From the NCBI GenBank assembly GCA_947039395.1, contig CAMQYS010000007.1, positions 971-64,970 on the forward strand: a stretch of 64,000 nt of DNA, given 5' to 3'. Shown here piece by piece: positions 28,369 to 35,939 of the stretch (positions are counted from its first letter, which is position 1; the number at the start of each line of letters is the position of its first letter). This DNA comes from an uncultured Deferribacteraceae bacterium. GTDB taxonomy: Bacteria; Chrysiogenota; Deferribacteres; Deferribacterales; Mucispirillaceae. A program made the position numbers and the translations under genes. The notes beneath the pieces are model-generated. The model was not told where the DNA came from, did not search any database, and saw only the letters and a program-made list of their open reading frames with translations.

Positions 28369-29565
28369 CTATCTTCTAAAAGTATTTATATCTATCACTT
28401 CTAGTTGATGCGGTTTTTTCTTCCACTCATAAATATCTACTTCAGCCTCATACTCAACATCAGGATCATCATTTGGTGATCTATCAGGAAGATTTAATAT
28501 CGCTAATGTATGTTTATCCTCACTCAATGCTAAACACTCATAATATGAAAACTCAAAAACTTCTAACTCACGACATGTAATATCAGTAATAACTGCTCTT
28601 TGTGTTTCAAGAAACATAATCTTATTGCCAGGTAATTCTAATATCTCTACACATTCATATGTTATCGGAGATGGTTGATAAGCTCTTATCTTATCTCCCT
28701 CTTCCTTATCTCTTAATATAGAATATTTTAAAACCGCTTCCTTATCAAAAATCATCATTCCATCTATTGTAGATTCCCTATTAGTTACAGTTGTCCACAC
28801 TCTACCACCGATTACAGCTATAGAGTAAATATCGTAGCGTTGCTTATGTGCATTTAATTGCTTTGTGTTTTTATCGTAAACATATACAGTTGTTGATTTA
28901 CCCCATGTTATCATTGCTATTGCTATTATATCTTTATGTTCCGATGCAGCAATTTCTATCCAATTAGGTCTCTCTTTAGATTCAAATATAGCTATTAACT
29001 CTAAATTATTATCATAAAGTTCACATCTATCATCTGTTGATACAGATAGTATATAACCTGCAGAAAGATACCACACACATGATATATTCTGAATAACATG
29101 TATCTCTTCTAGCTCATCTGTAACTAAATATTTATGAATACGGTTATGGCGAATAATCAGTAAGTAAAGTTGTGAATTAGATATATAGAAATTAAAGTAA
29201 TTCATATCATGTTGATGATAGCTTTCTCTAGGTAAAGACTCTATAAGTTCAACTTTCTCACCGTTAGAACGATAGATATCTAACGCTTCGTCCCACTCAT
29301 TTGTATAGTTGGAAAAATATAAATACATATAGCCATTTACATAATGATAATCAACAATATCTTTATGACCACTATCAATAAATATAAATTTCTGTGATGA
29401 GCCATCTTCCATATTGTAACGATATGCTATTATATCTTCATTACTATTTTCTAAGATGAGATAAGAGTTATCTGTTAGAAGTTTTATCCTCTTAAATCCA
29501 TGTAGGTATTTAAAGAAATACGCCTTTAAATTATCGTGCTTAATCGTTTTACTTTTCTCAAACAA
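28369..29565 (-). CDS. hypothetical 398-aa protein, no recognisable family (aromatic-rich, probably all-beta repeat)
   Basis: Long clean ORF. AAGGA SD lies 6 nt before the TTG start. No signal peptide or TM helix. Confidence 0.65.
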   Translation of the reverse strand: MFEKSKTIKHDNLKAYFFKYLHGFKRIKLLTDNSYLILENSNEDIIAYRYNMEDGSSQKFIFIDSGHKDIVDYHYVNGYMYLYFSNYTNEWDEALDIYRSNGEKVELIESLPRESYHQHDMNYFNFYISNSQLYLLIIRHNRIHKYLVTDELEEIHVIQNISCVWYLSAGYILSVSTDDRCELYDNNLELIAIFESKERPNWIEIAASEHKDIIAIAMITWGKSTTVYVYDKNTKQLNAHKQRYDIYSIAVIGGRVWTTVTNRESTIDGMMIFDKEAVLKYSILRDKEEGDKIRAYQPSPITYECVEILELPGNKIMFLETQRAVITDITCRELEVFEFSYYECLALSEDKHTLAILNLPDRSPNDDPDVEYEAEVDIYEWKKKPHQLEVIDINTFRR

Positions 29566-29763
29566 AACAGTTCCTTACTATATATAGTTCATTGTAAAAA
29601 TTTCAAATTAATGAATAACCATTTAATCATAATTATAAAAAAAATTCAAGTTAATATATTAATTTAACATGAACAAAAACTTTTATAGACAATTCTATAA
29701 ATTTATATAGAATGGTTAAAATTTATATAGAGTAATTTAGATTATTATATTATGGAGCAATCA

Positions 29764-30588
29764 ATGTCTTTTTTTGTATTAGATGAAAATAAGTGTAGAC
29801 GAGACAGTATCTGTGTAGATGTTTGTCCAACAAAGATAATAAAACAAGAGAAAGGTGAGCTACCTTATATCTCTGAAAAATCAGAAGCCTTTTGTATCGC
29901 CTGTGGATTATGTTATGCTTTTTGTCCACACGATGCGTGCTATGTTGAAAGTTTGAATAAAGAAGAGTTTATACCGATTGATAAAAACTTAAAAATATCA
30001 AATGACTCTGCTGTTCAATTTTTAAAATCACGAAGATCTGTTAGAAAGTTTAAAAATAGATCTATAGATCAAGAAGATCTTGCAATAATTTTAGATACAG
30101 CAAGATACGCCCCTTCTGCTAAAAATATGCAACCTGTACGATGGATTGCTGTTAGAGGGTTCGATAAAATGAAAGAGCTTGCAGGATTGTTATATACATA
30201 TTTCGATTCTGTAGCAAAAAGCAAAGATATTGATAAAGATGAAAAATTACATGCTAAACTGATATCATTAGCATATAAAAGTGGTAACGATGTATTTTTT
30301 AGAGGTGCACCCGATCTAATTATTGCTGTAATCCCTAAAAGCTATAAATGGCCTCAAGATGGAGCTATAGCTTTAACATATATTGAGCTTGCTGCATCTG
30401 GTATCGGTGCTGGTTGCTGTTGGGCAGGATATTTTACAACAGCTGTCAATTATGATGATACAATCAAACAGTTTGTTGGTATTACTGATGATGAAGTTGT
30501 TGTAGGTGCACAGATGATCGGATATCCAGTTTATAGACCTAAAGCTATTCCATCAAGAAAAAAACTGGATGTTAAATATATTGAATAA
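29764..30588 (+). CDS. nitroreductase-family protein with N-terminal 4Fe-4S ferredoxin domain
   Basis: CRRDSICVDVCP and CIACGLCYAFCP cluster motifs, then RRSVRKF...APSAKNMQP nitroreductase motifs. GGAG SD favours ATG at 29764 (track 29752). Confidence 0.87.
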   Translation: MSFFVLDENKCRRDSICVDVCPTKIIKQEKGELPYISEKSEAFCIACGLCYAFCPHDACYVESLNKEEFIPIDKNLKISNDSAVQFLKSRRSVRKFKNRSIDQEDLAIILDTARYAPSAKNMQPVRWIAVRGFDKMKELAGLLYTYFDSVAKSKDIDKDEKLHAKLISLAYKSGNDVFFRGAPDLIIAVIPKSYKWPQDGAIALTYIELAASGIGAGCCWAGYFTTAVNYDDTIKQFVGITDDEVVVGAQMIGYPVYRPKAIPSRKKLDVKYIE

Positions 30589-30618: not shown

Positions 30619-30947
30619 TTTTTTGAAATATACATAAATATAAAGAACGCTGAATTTATCGGCGTTCTTTTTTGCACATAAATAAACTTAGATCATCTCT
30701 CATATTGTTCTTTTTTGTATAAAACTATCTTTCTACTTATTCCAACAACCCCATTATCGGCGTTCTTCTTATCACTATTTTTTCTATATGTTTTTAGTAA
30801 TATTTATGATAAAATAAATAATATATGTGAGTTTGATAGTTTTTAAAGTCTGTAGATATTTCTATTGTAATATTAATAATAGAAATAATAATAGTAATAA
30901 TTATTATAATAATACATTTATCACAGAACATGTATTACAATATCTAA
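30619..30947 (+). repeat. copy a of the duplicated terminator/promoter cassette (with about 100-nt insertion)
   Basis: ttttttgaaatatacataaatataaagaacgctgaatttatcggcgttctttttt, then cactatttt..tatatgtttt..atatttatgata..tttgatagtttttaaagtctgtagatatttctattg..(TAA/TAG-rich)..catttatcacagaacatgtattacaa. Matches 32184-32425. Confidence 0.85.
30645..30673 (+). terminator. rho-independent terminator after the nitroreductase gene
   Basis: gaacgc-tgaatttatcg-gcgttc followed by T6. Confidence 0.65.
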
Positions 30948-30962
30948 ATGGAGAATTATTTT

Positions 30963-32183
30963 ATGAAGTTCAACACGTCAAAATCATTATCAAGCACTAA
31001 TTGTGCAATAACAGGCACAGCTATTAAATGTACAAACACTTTAATAAATGATGATGTTGACTTTATTAAAAACAACGCATCAACTGTTACATCTCTTGAC
31101 TTAACAGCAACATTTGATGATAGTCTTGACTCTATATCAACGATAACACAGAAACAGTTAGATAATCTTACATCAACAGCTTTTCCTCTGTTAGATACTC
31201 TATCTATCTCTTACAACGAAATAACAAATTTAAACCTAGCTAAATTCCCTGCTCTTACAAAACTAACTGCAATGGGTGTAAATAATATTACTGGGTTTAA
31301 TGATATAAAAAATAATCTCACAACTGTAGAGATATCTAAGGAAAGTAGAATTGATCTTGCCGATATAATAGGTATAGCTGACAAAACCAAAGTAACAACA
31401 TTAGGGTTAGGAGATTATATAGAGACAAACCTTGATATATCAGGATTTACGAACCTTATGAACCTTTCGGTATCGGATATGGAGAACTTAACAACACTTG
31501 ATCTATCTAAACTTACGAATCTTACGAAACTTGATATATGGTATATAGAGAACTTAGCAACACTTGATCTATCTAAACTTACGAACCTTACGAACCTTCA
31601 GGTATCGGATATGGATAACTTAGTAACACTTACTCTACCAACTGAGGCAAAGAACCTTACGATACTTAAGGTATGGAGTCTACCTCAATTAAATAAACTT
31701 GATATATCTGAATTTACGAATCTTACGAACCTTAAGGTATGGGGTATAAATAACTTAACAGCACTTACTCTACCAACTGAGGCAAAGAATCTTACGATAC
31801 TTGAGGTATGTCAGCTAGCTATAACCGAGCTTGATATATCTGCACTCACGAACCTTACGAAACTTGAGGTATGTAATCTAGCTATAACAGAGTTTGATAT
31901 ATCTGCACTCACGAACCTTACGAAACTTGAGGTAAATAATCTACCTAAATTAACAGCACTTACTCTATCTGCACTCACTGCTAATTTAACATCTTTACTG
32001 TTAGGTTCTAACACTAGCCTTGCAACATTAAATCTAGGAACTACATCATTTATAAAAGGATTAGAAGTAACAGGACGTGGAAATACAGCGTTAAAAACAA
32101 TTAACAATATCATATTTGTAGAAAATGATAAAATAATGATCAATTTAACAAATCCAAAGATTGGTTATTCTCCTGCATCGTAA
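30963..32183 (+). CDS. leucine-rich-repeat protein, leaderless (LRR-1, about 406 aa)
   Basis: About nine 22-23-aa units of type LDLSKLTNLTNLQVSDMDNLVT. GGAG SD is 9 nt before the ATG at 30963 (track start 30948). No hydrophobic N-terminus. Confidence 0.85.
   Translation: MKFNTSKSLSSTNCAITGTAIKCTNTLINDDVDFIKNNASTVTSLDLTATFDDSLDSISTITQKQLDNLTSTAFPLLDTLSISYNEITNLNLAKFPALTKLTAMGVNNITGFNDIKNNLTTVEISKESRIDLADIIGIADKTKVTTLGLGDYIETNLDISGFTNLMNLSVSDMENLTTLDLSKLTNLTKLDIWYIENLATLDLSKLTNLTNLQVSDMDNLVTLTLPTEAKNLTILKVWSLPQLNKLDISEFTNLTNLKVWGINNLTALTLPTEAKNLTILEVCQLAITELDISALTNLTKLEVCNLAITEFDISALTNLTKLEVNNLPKLTALTLSALTANLTSLLLGSNTSLATLNLGTTSFIKGLEVTGRGNTALKTINNIIFVENDKIMINLTNPKIGYSPAS
31425..32033 (+). repeat. 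in-frame 66-69-nt tandem coding repeats (LRR units) in LRR-1
   Basis: Recurrent acgaaccttacgaacctt... units visible in the DNA. Confidence 0.85.
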
Positions 32184-32425
32184 TAAATAATTTTTTGAAA
32201 TATACATAAATATAATGAACGCTGAATTTATCGGCGTTCTTTTTTTATAACTTTTTTCACTATTTTTATCTATATGTTTTGAATAATATTTATGATATAA
32301 TTAAGAATATATATGCGTTTGATAGTTTTTAAAAGTCTGTAGATATTTCTATTGCAGTAGTAATAATAATAGTAATAATTATTATAATAATACATTTATC
32401 ACAGAACATGTATTACAACATCTAA
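32184..32425 (+). repeat. copy b of the duplicated terminator/promoter cassette
   Basis: Near-identical to the conserved parts of 30619-30947 and to 34652-about 34800. Confidence 0.85.
32217..32246 (+). terminator. rho-independent terminator after LRR-1
   Basis: gaacgc-tgaatttatcg-gcgttc followed by T7. Confidence 0.7.
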
Positions 32426-32440
32426 ATGGAGAATTATTTT

Positions 32441-34651
32441 ATGAAGTTCAACACGTCAAAATCATTATCAAGCGCTAATTGTGCAATAACAGGCACAGCT
32501 ATTAAATGTACAAACACTTTAATAGATGAAGATATTGACTTTATAAAACAATATGCATCAACTGTTACATCAATTGATTTTGATAACCGAATAATAACAC
32601 AGAAACAGTTAGATAATATTACTGAAACAGCTTTTCCTCTGTTAGATAACCTATCTATCTCTAACAACGAAATAACAAATTTAAACCTAGCTAAATTCCC
32701 TGCTCTTACAAAACTAACTGCAATGGGTGTAAATAATATTACTGGGTTTAATGATATTAAAAACAATCTCACAACTGTAGAGATATCTAAGGAAAGTGGA
32801 ATTGATCTTGCCGATATAATAGGTACAATAGGTGTAGCTGATAAAACCAAAGTAAGAACATTACGGTTAGAAGATTATACAGAGGCAAACCTTGATATAT
32901 CTGAATTTACGAACCTTACGAACCTTAAGATATATAATCTAGCTATAACCGAGCTTGATATATCTGCACTTACGAACCTTACGAGCCTTAAGGTAAGTCG
33001 TCTAGATAAATTAAATACACTTGATCTATCTCAACTCACGAACCTTACGAGCCTTGAGGTAGGTAATCTACCTAAATTATCAACACTTACTCTACCAATT
33101 GAGGCAAAGAATCTTACGAACCTTGATATAGGTAGTCTACCTAAATTAACAGCACTTACTCTATCTAGACTCACGAACCTTACAAAACTAAGAGTAATAC
33201 GTGTGAAGAATATTACTGGGTTTAATGATATTAAAAATAATCTCACAACTATAAAGATATCTAAGGAAAGTGGAATTGATCTTACCGATATAACTGGTAT
33301 AGAGGACAAAACTAAATTAACCACATTAGGGTTAGGAGATTATATAGAGGCAAACCTTGATATATCTGAATTTACGAACCTTACGAACCTTCAGGTATGG
33401 GATCTAGCTACAAATACACTTGATCTATCTGCACTCACGAACCTTACGAACCTTGATATATGGTATCTGGAGAACCTAGCAACACTTGATCTATCTAACC
33501 TTACGAACCTTACGAATCTTCAGGTATCTGATATAGATAACTTAGTAACACTTACTCTCTCTGAACTCAAGAACCTTACGAATCTTCAGGTATGGAATAT
33601 AGAAAACTTAGCAACACTTACTCTACCAACTGATGCAACGAACCTTACGAACCTTGAGGTAGGTAATCTACCTAAATTAACAGCACTTACTCTCTCTGAA
33701 CTCAAGAACCTTACGAATCTTCAGGTATCTGATATAGAGAACTTAGCAACACTTGATCTATCTAAACTTACGAACCTTACGAATCTTGATATATGGAATA
33801 TGGAGAACTTAGCAACACTTGATCTATCTAAACTTACGAACCTTACGAATCTTCAGGTATCTGATATAGATAACATAGTAACGCTTACTCTACCAACTGA
33901 TGTAAAGAACCTTACGAATCTTCAGGTATGGAGTCTACCTCAATTAAATAACCTTGATATATCTGAATTTACGAACCTTATGAGCCTTGAGGTAGGTAAT
34001 CTACCTAAATTAACAGCACTTACTCTATCTGAACTCACGAACCTTACGAGCCTTGAGGTAGAGAGTCTAAATCAACTAACAACGCTTACTCTACCAACTG
34101 ATGCAACGAACCTTACGAACCTTGTTGTATATAATCTAACTGGCTTAACAGGACTTGATCTATCTGCACTCACGAACCTTACAAAACTAAGCGTAATAAG
34201 TGTAAAGAATATTACTGGGTTTAATGATATTAAAAATAATCTCACAACTATAGAGGTATCTAAGGAAAGTGGAATTAATCTTACCGATATAATAGGTACA
34301 ACTGGTGTAACTGACAAAACCAAAGTAACCATATTACGGTTACAGGAGTACACAGATACAGAACTTAATATATCTGGATTTACGAACCTTACGGAACTTA
34401 CGGTATGGGTGCTACCTATAACCGAGCTTGATCTATCTGCACTCACTGCTAATTTAACATCTTTAAGTTTAGGTTCTAACACTAGCCTTGCAACATTAAA
34501 TCTAGGAACTACATCGTTTGTAAAAGGATTAGAAGTAACAGGAAACGGAAATACAGCGTTAGACAAAATTGAAAAAATCACATTTTTAAAAGATGATAAA
34601 ATAACGATCAATTTAACAGATCCAAATATTGTTTACCCTCCTGCACCGTAA
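32441..34651 (+). CDS. leucine-rich-repeat protein, leaderless (LRR-2, about 736 aa)
   Basis: About 20 LRR units in three blocks. 5' and 3' ends are near-identical to LRR-1. Same SD/ATG arrangement (track start 32426). Confidence 0.85.
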   Translation: MKFNTSKSLSSANCAITGTAIKCTNTLIDEDIDFIKQYASTVTSIDFDNRIITQKQLDNITETAFPLLDNLSISNNEITNLNLAKFPALTKLTAMGVNNITGFNDIKNNLTTVEISKESGIDLADIIGTIGVADKTKVRTLRLEDYTEANLDISEFTNLTNLKIYNLAITELDISALTNLTSLKVSRLDKLNTLDLSQLTNLTSLEVGNLPKLSTLTLPIEAKNLTNLDIGSLPKLTALTLSRLTNLTKLRVIRVKNITGFNDIKNNLTTIKISKESGIDLTDITGIEDKTKLTTLGLGDYIEANLDISEFTNLTNLQVWDLATNTLDLSALTNLTNLDIWYLENLATLDLSNLTNLTNLQVSDIDNLVTLTLSELKNLTNLQVWNIENLATLTLPTDATNLTNLEVGNLPKLTALTLSELKNLTNLQVSDIENLATLDLSKLTNLTNLDIWNMENLATLDLSKLTNLTNLQVSDIDNIVTLTLPTDVKNLTNLQVWSLPQLNNLDISEFTNLMSLEVGNLPKLTALTLSELTNLTSLEVESLNQLTTLTLPTDATNLTNLVVYNLTGLTGLDLSALTNLTKLSVISVKNITGFNDIKNNLTTIEVSKESGINLTDIIGTTGVTDKTKVTILRLQEYTDTELNISGFTNLTELTVWVLPITELDLSALTANLTSLSLGSNTSLATLNLGTTSFVKGLEVTGNGNTALDKIEKITFLKDDKITINLTDPNIVYPPAP
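32885..34501 (+). repeat. in-frame 66-69-nt tandem coding repeats (LRR units) in LRR-2
   Basis: As in LRR-1, interrupted by two internal copies of the NITGFNDIKNN cap module. Confidence 0.85.
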
Positions 34652-34800
34652 TAAATAATTTTTTGAAATATACATAAATATAATGAACGCTGAATTTATC
34701 GGTGTTCTTTTTTTATCTATTTTTGTATATAATTTTTATAACTTTTTTTCACTATTTTTTATCTATATGTTTTGAGTTATATTTATGATAACATTAACTG
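34652..34800 (+). repeat. copy c (partial) of the duplicated cassette
   Basis: Same taataaataattttttgaaatatacataaatataatgaacgctgaatttatcgg(t)gttc and cactatttttt..tatatgttttga..atatttatgata, then diverges. Confidence 0.8.
34685..34714 (+). terminator. rho-independent terminator after LRR-2
   Basis: gaacgc-loop-gtgttc (one G-U pair) followed by T7. Confidence 0.6.
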
Positions 34801-34985
34801 TCTGCGTATATTTATCATTCTAAATACAGTTATAATTTTATCTAAACGGAGAGTTATCTCATGAAATCTATCACCACTTAAATCACTTATGTTACTGCTT
34901 TTTTTCTGCTATAATTTTTAATACTTACGCAAATGATAAAACTGCTAACAGAAAAAATAAACACGTATCAAGTGCTAACTATACA

Positions 34986-35549
34986 ATGGTTTCAGCAACT
35001 ATTATATGTAAAAACTCATTGATAGATAACGATATAAATTTTATAAAAAAACATGCAAAAATTATTACATCGCTTGATCTGACTTCTCATGATTATGTTG
35101 ATGATATCGTAACACAATCACAGGTGGATAATATTATAAACGGAACTACAAAATTTCCTCGCTTAGATAGTTTATCTATCTCTAACAACAGAGATATCTC
35201 TTCTTTAAATTTAAAAAACTTGCCTAAACTTACAAAATTATACGCCTTACGAATCCATAATATTACTGGATTTAACCGTGTTAAAAATCAATTAACAGCT
35301 TTAGAAATATCTGAAGTAAGTCGTATATCTCCTAACGATATAAAATCTTTAAGTAAATTAACTGTATTAGCACTACATGAGTACAGTAACATTAATAGTA
35401 TTGATCTATCTAAACTTACCAATCTTACTGATCTTACTATAAATCAAATGTATAAAGTAACCACTCTTATAATGTCCGTAACAGCATGCAAAATTACCAA
35501 TATCACAGTAACAAATCTAAACACACTAACTAAAATATATAAACCGTAA
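34986..35549 (+). CDS. short LRR paralogue (LRR-3), probably a 5'-frameshifted remnant
   Basis: SATIICKNSLIDNDINFIKKHAKIITSLDLT aligns with the LRR-1/2 N-termini. It has one NITGFN cap plus about 3 LRR units. The reading frame is open upstream to 34860, but the SD-ATG (34861) is in another frame. Confidence 0.6.
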   Translation: MVSATIICKNSLIDNDINFIKKHAKIITSLDLTSHDYVDDIVTQSQVDNIINGTTKFPRLDSLSISNNRDISSLNLKNLPKLTKLYALRIHNITGFNRVKNQLTALEISEVSRISPNDIKSLSKLTVLALHEYSNINSIDLSKLTNLTDLTINQMYKVTTLIMSVTACKITNITVTNLNTLTKIYKP

Positions 35550-35560
35550 AATGACACAAC

Positions 35561-35591
35561 AAAAAAGGATAGATTTAACTCTATCCTTTTT
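35561..35591. terminator. bidirectional rho-independent terminator
   Basis: aaaaaggatag-atttaact-ctatccttttt. A-run and T-run flank an 11-bp stem, between convergent LRR-3 and trxA. Confidence 0.75.
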
Positions 35592-35621: not shown

Positions 35622-35939
35622 CTATAAATGTTTATTAATTGCATCAACGTAAGCAGCACGTGGTTGTACACCTATAAACTGCTCTACTACTTCACCATTT
35701 TTAAATAATAAAACAGTCGGAATACTCATAACATTATACTCAGAAGCTAACTCTTGGTTATCATCAACATTAATCTTTACAACACCAGCTTTGCCATCAA
35801 ACTCTTTCTGTAACTCATCAATAATTGGAGTTAACATCTTACATGGCATACACCAGTCTGCCCAAAAATCAACTAAAACAGGTACTGATGATTTCAGTAC
35901 TTCAGACTCAAAATTACTTGCGTTTATCTCTAATGCCAT
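35622..35939 (-). CDS. trxA: thioredoxin
   Basis: 105 aa, VLVDFWADWCMPCK active site, PTVLLFKNGE. AGGAG SD. Confidence 0.93.
   Translation of the reverse strand: MALEINASNFESEVLKSSVPVLVDFWADWCMPCKMLTPIIDELQKEFDGKAGVVKINVDDNQELASEYNVMSIPTVLLFKNGEVVEQFIGVQPRAAYVDAINKHL

Follow-up and report, generated by a model that had tools for sequence, protein, structure and literature searches.

Genes and features of the locus

Two same-strand genes for leucine-rich repeat (LRR) proteins, LRR-A and LRR-B (A and B below), are followed by a decayed third copy, C (Table 1). The window is the whole 64-kb stretch of DNA that was analysed. The open reading frames extend over 30948..32183 (411 aa) and 32426..34651 (741 aa) on the + strand. 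From the SD-supported ATG codons (30963 in A, 32441 in B), each 9 nt 3' of GGAG, the products are 406 and 736 aa long and begin with MKFNTSKSLSS(T/A)NCAITGTAIKC. A longer N-terminus is impossible, because an in-frame TAA directly precedes each upstream ATG; a hidden upstream start supplying a leader, which the initial annotation had named as a possible refutation, is thereby ruled out. The C-termini are ...GYSPAS in A and ...VYPPAP in B, with LPXTG in neither.

Table 1. Coordinates of features at the LRR locus (positions in the window)
Feature	Position	Strand	Description
Terminator hairpin GAACGCTGAATTTATCGGCGTTC + T-run	30645..30673	+	3' of nitroreductase gene; sequence, aligned copies
5' region of A	30776..30962	+	Common to gene B; AT-rich palindrome 30888-30913; in-frame TAA 30945-30947; SD GGAG 30950-30953
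LRR-A	30963..32183	+	406 aa; leaderless derivative of LRR lipoprotein family
Deletion junction in A	30981..30995	+	AAATCATT joined to ATCAAGC, break between 30988 and 30989; DNA and protein alignments, L002 gene 4 sequence
N-cap C-x8-C of LRR-A	31002-04, 31029-31	+	Cys codons
Further parts of LRR-A	from 31287		One ITGFNDIK module (start given); ~9 LRR units of 22 aa; conserved C-cap and tail
Intrinsic terminator after A	32217..32246	+	Terminator scan (copy 32217-32239)
5' region of B	32251..32440	+	Palindrome 32366-32391; in-frame TAA 32423-32425; SD 32428-32431
LRR-B	32441..34651	+	736 aa; same deletion junction as A (between 32466 and 32467)
Modules of LRR-B	from 32738, 33212, 34211		Three ITGFNDIK modules; ~20 LRR units of 22 aa
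Intrinsic terminator after B	34685..34714	+	Terminator scan (copy 34685-34707)
LRR-C pseudogene	34861..35549	+	ATG 34861; premature TAA 34879-81; residual ORF 34986-35549
Hairpin between C remnant and convergent thioredoxin gene	35562..35591	.	Right edge of variable island

The ends of A and B are similar, as the initial annotation held: 94% identity at the 5' end (30880-31102 vs 32358-32580), 89% at the 3' end (31951-32250 vs 34419-34718) and 98% from -80 to +70 around the start. Along the genes identity is patchy, 50 to 100%. The repeat period is 66 nt (22 aa) by TRF. Canonical 22-aa units, by motif counting, number about 9 in A and about 20 in B; the ~65-aa module ITGFNDIKNNLTT...DKTK is present once in A and three times in B. 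The earlier statement that the two genes differ by whole-module expansion is correct. The LRR solenoid proposed from the sequence was predicted by AF2 with a pLDDT of 87, with internalins as the nearest structures (Foldseek matches to 3bz5 and 2omz, E about 5e-9). The best Pfam match of A and B is LRR_EndoS, PF23952. PF13306 (LRR_5; TpLRR/BspA-like), NEL, the internalin IR domain and NTPase domains are without Pfam matches in A and B. PADLOC gives no match, and the two proteins are not placed in LRR-sensor anti-phage systems (NLR-like/Avs; STAND/NACHT). No effector domain, secretion-system gene, chaperone gene or PAAR/VgrG/Hcp gene was detected at or near the locus in the 64-kb window, and no RNA element of the window is matched in Rfam.

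Copy C carries a +1 C insertion, which leads to a TAA after MKSITT, an extra T in a T-run, and Tyr in place of the first N-cap Cys; ~1.7 kb of the 3' part are absent in comparison with an intact 773-aa orthologue. It had been described as a decayed paralogue that still encodes a Sec-type leader. Decay and retention of the leader-coding sequence hold; the leader itself is of the lipoprotein type, with its lipobox Cys now Tyr (FNTYAN), a replacement found in the C copy of two species. The element GAACGCTGAATTTATCGGCGTTC recurs after A and after B and so marks the boundary of the duplicated unit. Inverted repeats suitable for an invertible promoter or shufflon, recombinases and invertible elements were not found at the locus. 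The TAA-rich promoter tract was rejected as a phase-variable tract: it varies between copies by one 9-nt indel only.

Relatives, loss of the leader and exchange between species

Relatives occur at the same syntenic site in three other species-level lineages of uncultured Deferribacteraceae, and at a second locus in a related species (L001/L003), where three leader-bearing paralogues are ~33-40% identical. Genes are arranged in tandem arrays, each gene with its own promoter region and terminator. The proteins consist of a lipoprotein signal peptide MKFHxxKS-LLLSxxIF(T/S)AC, a short tether of Pro/Thr/Gly, an N-cap formed by a C-x8-C beta-hairpin, 22-aa LRRs and ~65-aa ITGFNDIK modules in varying number, and a C-cap and tail (...YPxAP) that are conserved. 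Every relative found other than A and B has a hydrophobic N-terminal leader, in most cases a lipoprotein signal peptide MKFHxxKSxxLLLSxxIFTAC, as called from hydropathy (11-residue Kyte-Doolittle) and the lipobox motif. The lipobox FTAC, FSAC or ISAC occupies residues 19-22 in L002 genes 1-4, L007 genes 1-3, P0003, P0005-7 and P0123, each of which has exactly three Cys: that of the lipobox and the two of the N-cap. Exceptions among leader-bearing relatives are the C copies, in which Tyr replaces the lipobox Cys, and P0127, whose N-terminus is hydrophobic but has no lipobox.

A and B share with these proteins the C-x8-C N-cap followed by the conserved ~140-aa N-domain (ITQKQL..FPLLDNLSIS..FPALTKL..ITGFNDIK..DKTK), the C-cap and tail (LNLGTxxFxxxLxVTGxGNxxL...I.L..P.I.YPxxP; translations, alignment) and the position in a tandem array between the nitroreductase and thioredoxin/DUF2400/radical-SAM genes. 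They lack the F(T/S)AC or ISAC lipobox signal peptide, which is deleted. By phmmer the N-domain is confined to ~9 clusters among 1.84 billion, all of the same family. A word-indexed protein search with the N-domain alone gave no matches, a limit of sensitivity, since exhaustive phmmer finds the family; a scan of JGI metagenomes gave no relatives. A and B are thus placed in a small, lineage-restricted, undescribed family of internalin-like LRR lipoproteins of uncultured gut Deferribacteraceae related to Mucispirillum, presumably located at the cell surface and represented so far by few metagenome-assembled genomes.

In comparison with the leader-bearing paralogues, 93-99 nt (31-33 codons) are absent from A and B, in frame. 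The alignments contain a single clean gap in both window genes and in both genes of L001 (winA, winB, L001A, L001B). The junction lies in unique, non-repetitive sequence and recurs unchanged in both genes of two species, which come from different samples. What the deletion takes out is the h-region together with the lipobox Cys and the Pro/Thr tether; it leaves the N-cap and both its cysteines intact. Averaged over 11 residues, Kyte-Doolittle hydropathy peaks at 1.0 in A and B and at 2.5-3.0 in all other family members, and no lipoprotein n-/h-region with lipobox Cys was detected in either by hydropathy and motif. LSSTNC was discarded as a cryptic lipobox, having no hydrophobic segment. No leader-bearing A-type allele was found among 5.8 billion proteins.

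Both the lack of a hydrophobic leader and its loss, as first proposed, are supported by these data. Since nearly all relatives keeping the N-terminus have a lipoprotein signal peptide, A and B are deletion derivatives; as judged from the alignments, the loss of the leader is secondary and the two genes are derived members of the family. By one in-frame deletion of 93-99 nt, codon 9 was fused to the residues immediately N-terminal to the N-cap, and both genes contain this same deleted allele. The view that A and B fit no known class for want of a lipobox element is not upheld, as they derive from LRR lipoproteins, a known kind. Close homologues with an export signal, set beforehand by the initial annotation as evidence against its reading, exist in the lipobox-bearing relatives.

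The A+B block, which has the 5' region of A as its left edge, matches its counterpart in another species at ~99.4% identity, while dS in the flanking genes of that species is 0.6-1.0, a sign that this DNA was recently exchanged between species. A of the window and A of L001 are separated by 0 synonymous and 7 nonsynonymous changes, and the last 250 codons of B by 1 and 4, so that of only 12 changes after transfer 11 are nonsynonymous and 1 is synonymous. For the flanking genes omega is 0.05-0.12. Within the family, omega lies at 0.5-1 for the N-domain and exceeds 1 over the C-terminal 75 aa, leader-bearing paralogues included; a high dN/dS is hence no proof of decay. As a test of function dN/dS was discarded as uninformative, being high family-wide, with too few changes after transfer. 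Neutral decay and diversifying selection cannot be told apart from the substitution patterns. Excess interspecies identity is seen also in a leader-bearing gene (L002 gene 4 vs L006, 95.6% vs 88%).

Tandem arrays are present at the same site in L001, L002, L004/5 and L009/10, and repeat numbers differ between genomes; B has 736 aa here and 492 aa in another species. A variable stretch amid conserved housekeeping genes, with variation in size, was therefore correctly recognized at the outset. L001B is mosaic, A-type over the first ~600 nt and B-type over the last 760 nt. Gene 1 of L009/L010, from a sister species, has ATA in place of the start codon ATG. Turnover of the locus is, on this comparative record, by gene birth and death.

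Interpretation of the leaderless genes

A and B are probably export-disabled alleles of the variable LRR lipoprotein family. Their products, if made, would be kept out of the Sec/SPase II/Lol route, remain in the cytoplasm and be unable to perform the presumed ligand binding of the family at the cell envelope. They would represent export-null ('off') alleles in a lipoprotein family that varies by recombination and by birth and death, and may still donate sequence for recombination with leader-bearing paralogues. The reading frames would still be intact because the deletion was recent and repeat indels are in frame by construction. Independent lesions that abolish lipidation, export or expression in sister copies point to inactivation: Cys→Tyr in the lipobox of C, frameshifts, N-cap Cys→Tyr and truncation of C in the window, ATG→ATA in L009/L010. 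Neither A nor B shows signs of purifying selection, in contrast to the flanking genes.

That A and B are functional without a leader, as cytoplasmic binders or as non-classical cargo of a T6SS or the flagellar type III apparatus, with a useful allele spreading, is unlikely, although several observations agree with it. The ORFs run uninterrupted for 406 and 736 codons, with SD, ATG, promoter-like region and terminators kept; the in-frame deletion cuts out exactly the signal peptide and tether and leaves the N-cap with its cysteines in place; the leaderless allele recently crossed a species boundary and was kept (dS about 0 between species), for which usefulness would be the easier explanation; and the leader-bearing A-type allele is missing from the proteins searched. 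Polar and with many Ser/Thr/Asn residues, the new N-terminus MKFNTSKSLSSTN has a composition frequent among type III signals. The relative Mucispirillum schaedleri encodes a T6SS (PMC5285517). Against these stand the lack of secretion, chaperone and effector genes at or near the locus, the 11:1 ratio, which implies no purifying selection, the two conserved N-cap cysteines, which suggest a fold evolved for an oxidising compartment, the plain inactivating lesions in sister copies, and interspecies exchange as a general property of the island. For the non-classical export or intracellular role suggested initially, no support was obtained from window genes, domains or selection. The fuller scenario, in which a lipoprotein became a functional leaderless LRR protein in one step (cytoplasmic binder or T6SS/flagellar cargo), was duplicated or converted into two genes and swept across the species boundary in a shared gut habitat, is slightly less likely still.

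Silent or archival cassettes, donating LRR modules by gene conversion to expressed leader-bearing paralogues (C or the second locus) for antigenic or size variation, are improbable. The mosaic L001B, the patchy A-B identity, the variable repeat and module numbers and the three leader-bearing paralogues of the second locus would suit such a role; yet A and B have their own start codon, SD, promoter-like region and terminator, in which classic silent cassettes differ, C as the only leader-bearing copy at the locus in the window is dead, the second-locus paralogues are too diverged to be a good conversion substrate, and no recombinase or invertible element accompanies the genes.

An artefact, either misassembly of repetitive DNA producing the leaderless state or the tandem arrangement, or an unnoticed upstream start, is very improbable: the assemblies are short-read metagenome assemblies, L011 has a scaffold gap inside a paralogue, and the left edge of the high-identity block adjoins a repeated ~60-nt terminator element at which assembly graphs could cross, but the shared junction in non-repetitive sequence, identical A on four contigs, agreement of L008 with the window over 17 kb, same-site arrays reproduced in independent assemblies (an assembly artefact had been named by the initial annotation as grounds for refutation) and the TAA immediately 5' of the ORFs oppose it.

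If A and B are export-disabled alleles and not exported, the locus is a clear, if ordinary, case of birth-and-death evolution; if they are exported, it would be a record of an effector arising from an adhesin family. Tandem arrays, size variation and interspecies exchange make members of the family candidate adhesins, antigens or phage receptors. Leader-deleted, Cys→Tyr and ATG→ATA copies suggest repeated loss of lipidation, export or expression, a pattern that would resemble loci under immune or phage pressure. Relatives of Mucispirillum inhabit the mucus layer of the gut and have been linked to inflammation, yet hardly anything is known of their surface proteins. 'Leaderless' is not to be read as 'novel class' before orthologues are checked.

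Comparison with known systems

The genome paper of M. schaedleri mentions T6SS, ANK and TPR proteins, but not LRR proteins (PMC5285517). Like A and B, the Gram-negative proteins YopM, IpaH, SspH, SlrP and EspK/GogB combine LRRs with a polar N-terminus and have no leader. These type III effectors have 20-aa LPX repeats, a helical N-cap, often a NEL E3-ligase, and occur in injectisome-bearing genomes, whereas A and B have 22-aa repeats without NEL, and their leaderless state is due to a recent deletion; the EspK/GogB model gives 16-38 bits vs a cut-off of 872.

Mycoplasma Vlp, Vsa and Vsp arrays resemble the locus in tandem paralogues, in-frame expansion and contraction of repeats, frequent recombination, and copies that are individually on or off. 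They differ in having repeats other than LRRs and in switching via homopolymers in promoters or via site-specific inversion; the present locus yielded no switch element, and 'off' corresponds to irreversible mutations.

Paralogous LRR families of diderms, those of Leptospira, other spirochaetes and Bacteroidota (Treponema denticola LrrA, BspA-type), include many lipoproteins; members are presumed or shown adhesins. The Leptospira proteins LIC10831, LIC11098 and LIC12759 (PDB 4U06, 4U08, 4U09) are structural matches with TM 0.45-0.56, but no sequence-level family relationship exists between this group and A or B, and the repeats are 23-aa or TpLRR PF13306.

Listeria internalins (InlA, InlJ, InlF; PDB 1O6V, 3BZ5, 4FMZ) are the best sequence and fold matches, with 21-22-aa LRR units in a curved solenoid, as in A and B, and likewise belong to multigene families of binding proteins at the cell surface that differ in repeat number. 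NCBIfam scores remain far below cut-off (internalin_J 37-54 bits vs 1700; internalin_A 21-34 vs 1600); of the class 1 internalin characters A and B have the 22-aa LRR solenoid, without IR domain or LPXTG. Internalins have a Sec signal peptide, a helical N-cap, an Ig-like inter-repeat domain, an LPXTG or GW anchor and a Gram-positive wall; the Deferribacteraceae family has a lipoprotein leader and tether (lost in A and B), a C-x8-C hairpin cap and its own C-cap, and both its caps are unique to the ~9 protein clusters.

Leader deletion in genes A and B

The ancestors of genes A and B were lipoproteins, and both genes have lost every element for Sec/SPase II processing. Members of the family that keep their N-terminus all carry a textbook lipoprotein leader (such as MKFHTLKSFMLLLLSVMIFTAC followed by ANKK...TPP, and MKFHALKSLCTVLISALLFSAC followed by ADE...), except the C copies, with lipobox Cys→Tyr, and the related protein P0127, with a hydrophobic N-terminus without lipobox. 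Leader-bearing members contain exactly three Cys: that of the lipobox and two of the N-cap. In protein and DNA alignments one clean gap is common to A and B of the window and A and B of the related contig L001. At the gap, codon 9 (...KSL) runs straight into SSTNC, and the junction reads AAATCATT followed by ATCAAGC. Missing are 93 nt relative to gene 4 of the contig L002, and up to 99 nt relative to other paralogues. The deletion is in frame and removes the h-region, lipobox Cys and Pro/Thr tether. AATCAT is present at both edges in L002 gene 4, taken as a proxy for the ancestral gene; the deletion may have arisen by slippage or illegitimate recombination, with which these repeats would be consistent.

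The initial annotation took A and B for proteins that had lost a leader and that fit none of the usual bacterial LRR classes. The loss of the leader is borne out by this shared deletion; the place outside known classes is not, as the kin are lipoproteins. An upstream in-frame start supplying a signal peptide is excluded: the first ATG of A and of B overlaps the SD and is preceded by an in-frame TAA, so a longer N-terminus is impossible. Of the two ATGs, the second is the true start, with GGAG 9 nt before it. Products are 406 aa (A) and 736 aa (B), both starting MKFNTSKSLSS(T/A)NCAITGTAIKC.

Positions of features (in the window unless a related contig is named)
Feature	Position	Remarks
398-aa protein gene	28369-29565	minus strand; between rubredoxin and nitroreductase genes
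Nitroreductase gene	29752-30588	left neighbour of LRR array
Extra DNA upstream of A	30674-30775	about 80-100 nt; missing from L001
A+B block	30776-34716	corresponds to L001 9822-13022
Palindrome ATAATAGTAATAATTATTATAATAAT	30888-30913; 32366-32391	26 nt, AT-rich; 50-75 nt upstream of A, B
Gene A	ORF 30948-32183	same strand as B, C
Gene B	ORF 32426-34651	same strand as A, C
Start codon (second ATG)	30963 (A); 32441 (B)	
Deletion junction	30988/30989 (A); 32466/32467 (B)	
Conserved C-terminal tail	32100-32180 (A); 34570-34648 (B)	about 28 aa
Gene C, broken third LRR copy	34861-35549	same strand as A, B
Thioredoxin gene	35622-35939	convergent to LRR genes; right neighbour of array
L002 gene 4	L002 17696-18979	leader-bearing; stretch compared with L006 1-1284
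ATG→ATA, first LRR lipoprotein gene	L009 5875-5877	same position in L010
Two extra genes	L009 1633-3123	minus strand; between rubredoxin gene and conserved 397-aa gene
Second tandem array	L007 5164-13078; L011 9001-17081	three LRR lipoproteins

The LRR proteins and their array

The tandem LRR paralogues with similar ends were described correctly, in all material points, by the initial annotation. By motif counting, A has about 9 canonical 22-aa units and B about 20, figures that are provisional as they come from short-read assemblies (compare the scaffold gap within the repeats of the second array in L011). The period is 66 nt (Tandem Repeats Finder), and A has one copy, B three copies, of a module of about 65 aa, ITGFNDIKNNLTT...DKTK. 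A and B are 94% identical at their 5' ends and 89% at their 3' ends. An identical hairpin terminator closes each gene and is also found after the nitroreductase gene. The extra DNA upstream of A includes a partial second terminator-arm copy (ATTATCGGCGTTCTTC) and was probably left behind when recombination or duplication gave rise to the array. The palindrome ATAATAGTAATAATTATTATAATAAT, not present upstream of copy C, could be an operator.

Pfam yields generic LRR families only, with LRR_EndoS at the top; NCBIfam internalin and EspK/GogB models match far under their cut-offs, and PADLOC gives no match for the LRR proteins. In the AlphaFold2 model an LRR solenoid is predicted with confidence (pLDDT 87); Cys14 and Cys23 flank its beta-hairpin N-cap, and the final 28 residues are disordered. 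Nearest in the PDB by Foldseek and phmmer are the Listeria internalins InlJ and InlA, followed by the C. tepidum Roco LRR and Leptospira LRR proteins. Likeness to internalin-type and spirochaete-type LRR adhesins would be one of mode of working. Defining features of the internalin, TpLRR/BspA and T3SS LPX-effector families were looked for and are lacking; membership in these families is rejected. From its lipid anchor, tether, disulfide-type cap and internalin-like solenoid, the family presumably works at the envelope.

Among 5.8 billion proteins, those most similar are encoded on a few metagenome contigs, assigned by genome scan to uncultured Deferribacteraceae assemblies (G+C about 30%); the organisms are probably relatives of Mucispirillum. 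Related genome assemblies derive from the runs ERR3139990, ERR3140002 and ERR3140042. Exhaustive phmmer searching of 1.84 billion representatives with the N-domain, the conserved part of about 140 aa after the N-cap, recovers only about nine clusters. The family appears undescribed and of very narrow distribution; the M. schaedleri genome paper names T6SS, ANK and TPR proteins, and not LRR proteins (PMC5285517). The array occupies one syntenic slot and differs in composition between genomes: 406, 492 and 773 aa in L001; 469, 603, 1083 and 672 aa in L002 (likewise L004, L005); 427, 603, 1082, ... aa in L009 and L010, where the second gene is 603 and 581 aa, respectively. A second locus in the species of L001 and L003 holds three further genes (690, 652, 1109 aa). 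This second array adjoins an encapsulin-like (Linocin_M18) gene, and its third protein has a Gly/Asp/Asn-rich tether of about 55 aa behind the lipobox.

All four species-level lineages conserve the 398-aa protein (omega about 0.05), for which Pfam, NCBIfam and PADLOC give no match. The two extra genes of L009 (181 and 304 aa) have no Pfam match and are missing from the 97%-identical L002.

Turnover and exchange between species

The array evolves by gene birth and death and by recombination. Copy C of L001 is intact (773 aa) with Tyr for the lipobox Cys (FNTYA/ND), so its leader is plain Sec-type. In copy C of the window a +1 insertion stops the reading frame after six codons; a T-run is one T longer, an N-cap Cys has become Tyr, and about 1.7 kb of the 3' part is lost. 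L009 and L010 belong to the same species as L002, and to a strain 97% identical to it. Their first LRR lipoprotein gene has ATG→ATA with the leader otherwise intact, for which reason the gene caller yielded a "leaderless" protein (P0004); judged from sequence, the change is an independent lesion with predicted loss of expression. L001 B is a mosaic: its first 600 nt or so are 98-100% identical to window A, its last 760 nt 98-100% to window B. Between A and B of the window, identity is 98% in the stretch from -80 to +70 about the junction and then falls to 50-85%; gene conversion may thus have carried the deletion from one of the two genes into the other.

An ENA scaffold of sample SAMEA5316509 matches the window at 100% identity across 17 kb, and an identical A is encoded on four contigs. 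L001 (sample SAMEA5316503) belongs to a different species. Flanking genes of window and L001 are 83-91% identical, with dS 0.34-1.0 (0.6-1.0 except thioredoxin) and omega 0.05-0.12. Identity is 99.4% for A (0 synonymous, 7 nonsynonymous changes), 98.8% for the A-B spacer and 99.3% for the last 700 nt of B, whose last 250 codons have dS 0.005 (1 synonymous, 4 nonsynonymous); dS of copy C is 0.15. An LRR block so much more alike than its flanks indicates that A and B were exchanged between the species recently, by recombination confined to the LRR island. The A+B block as a whole is about 99% identical, with dS about 0, and its left edge adjoins the repeated terminator element. Leader-bearing L002 gene 4 is 95.6% identical to its L006 counterpart, with flanks at about 88%; exchange is therefore a property of the island, not peculiar to the leaderless allele.

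Function of A and B

If translated, A and B would stay cytoplasmic and could not act at the envelope. The balance tips modestly towards export-null alleles in a fast-turning-over family of variable lipoproteins; in its behaviour the array resembles loci of variable surface lipoproteins. This is favoured because sister copies bear independent inactivating or de-lipidating lesions, because no effector domain is found in A and B and no secretion genes are linked to them, and because changes in A and B since transfer (11 nonsynonymous, 1 synonymous) indicate no purifying selection. Omega is about 0.5 to above 1 across the whole LRR family, so dN/dS cannot tell the readings apart.

A functional leaderless derivative, the main rival, has an appreciable minority chance: ORFs are intact, translation signals retained, the excision precise and in frame, the spread across species recent, and no leader-bearing A-type allele is found. 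Silent donor cassettes would fit the mosaicism; they do not fit the retained expression signals and are improbable. An artefact of assembly or annotation is very unlikely. The leaderless state of A and B is a curious derived condition, probably degenerative.

The tail of A and B is conserved family-wide (...KITI.LT.P.I.YP.AP) and predicted disordered (pLDDT below 50); the last 75 codons have dN/dS above 1 across paralogues. It may act as a motif for sorting or for interaction.
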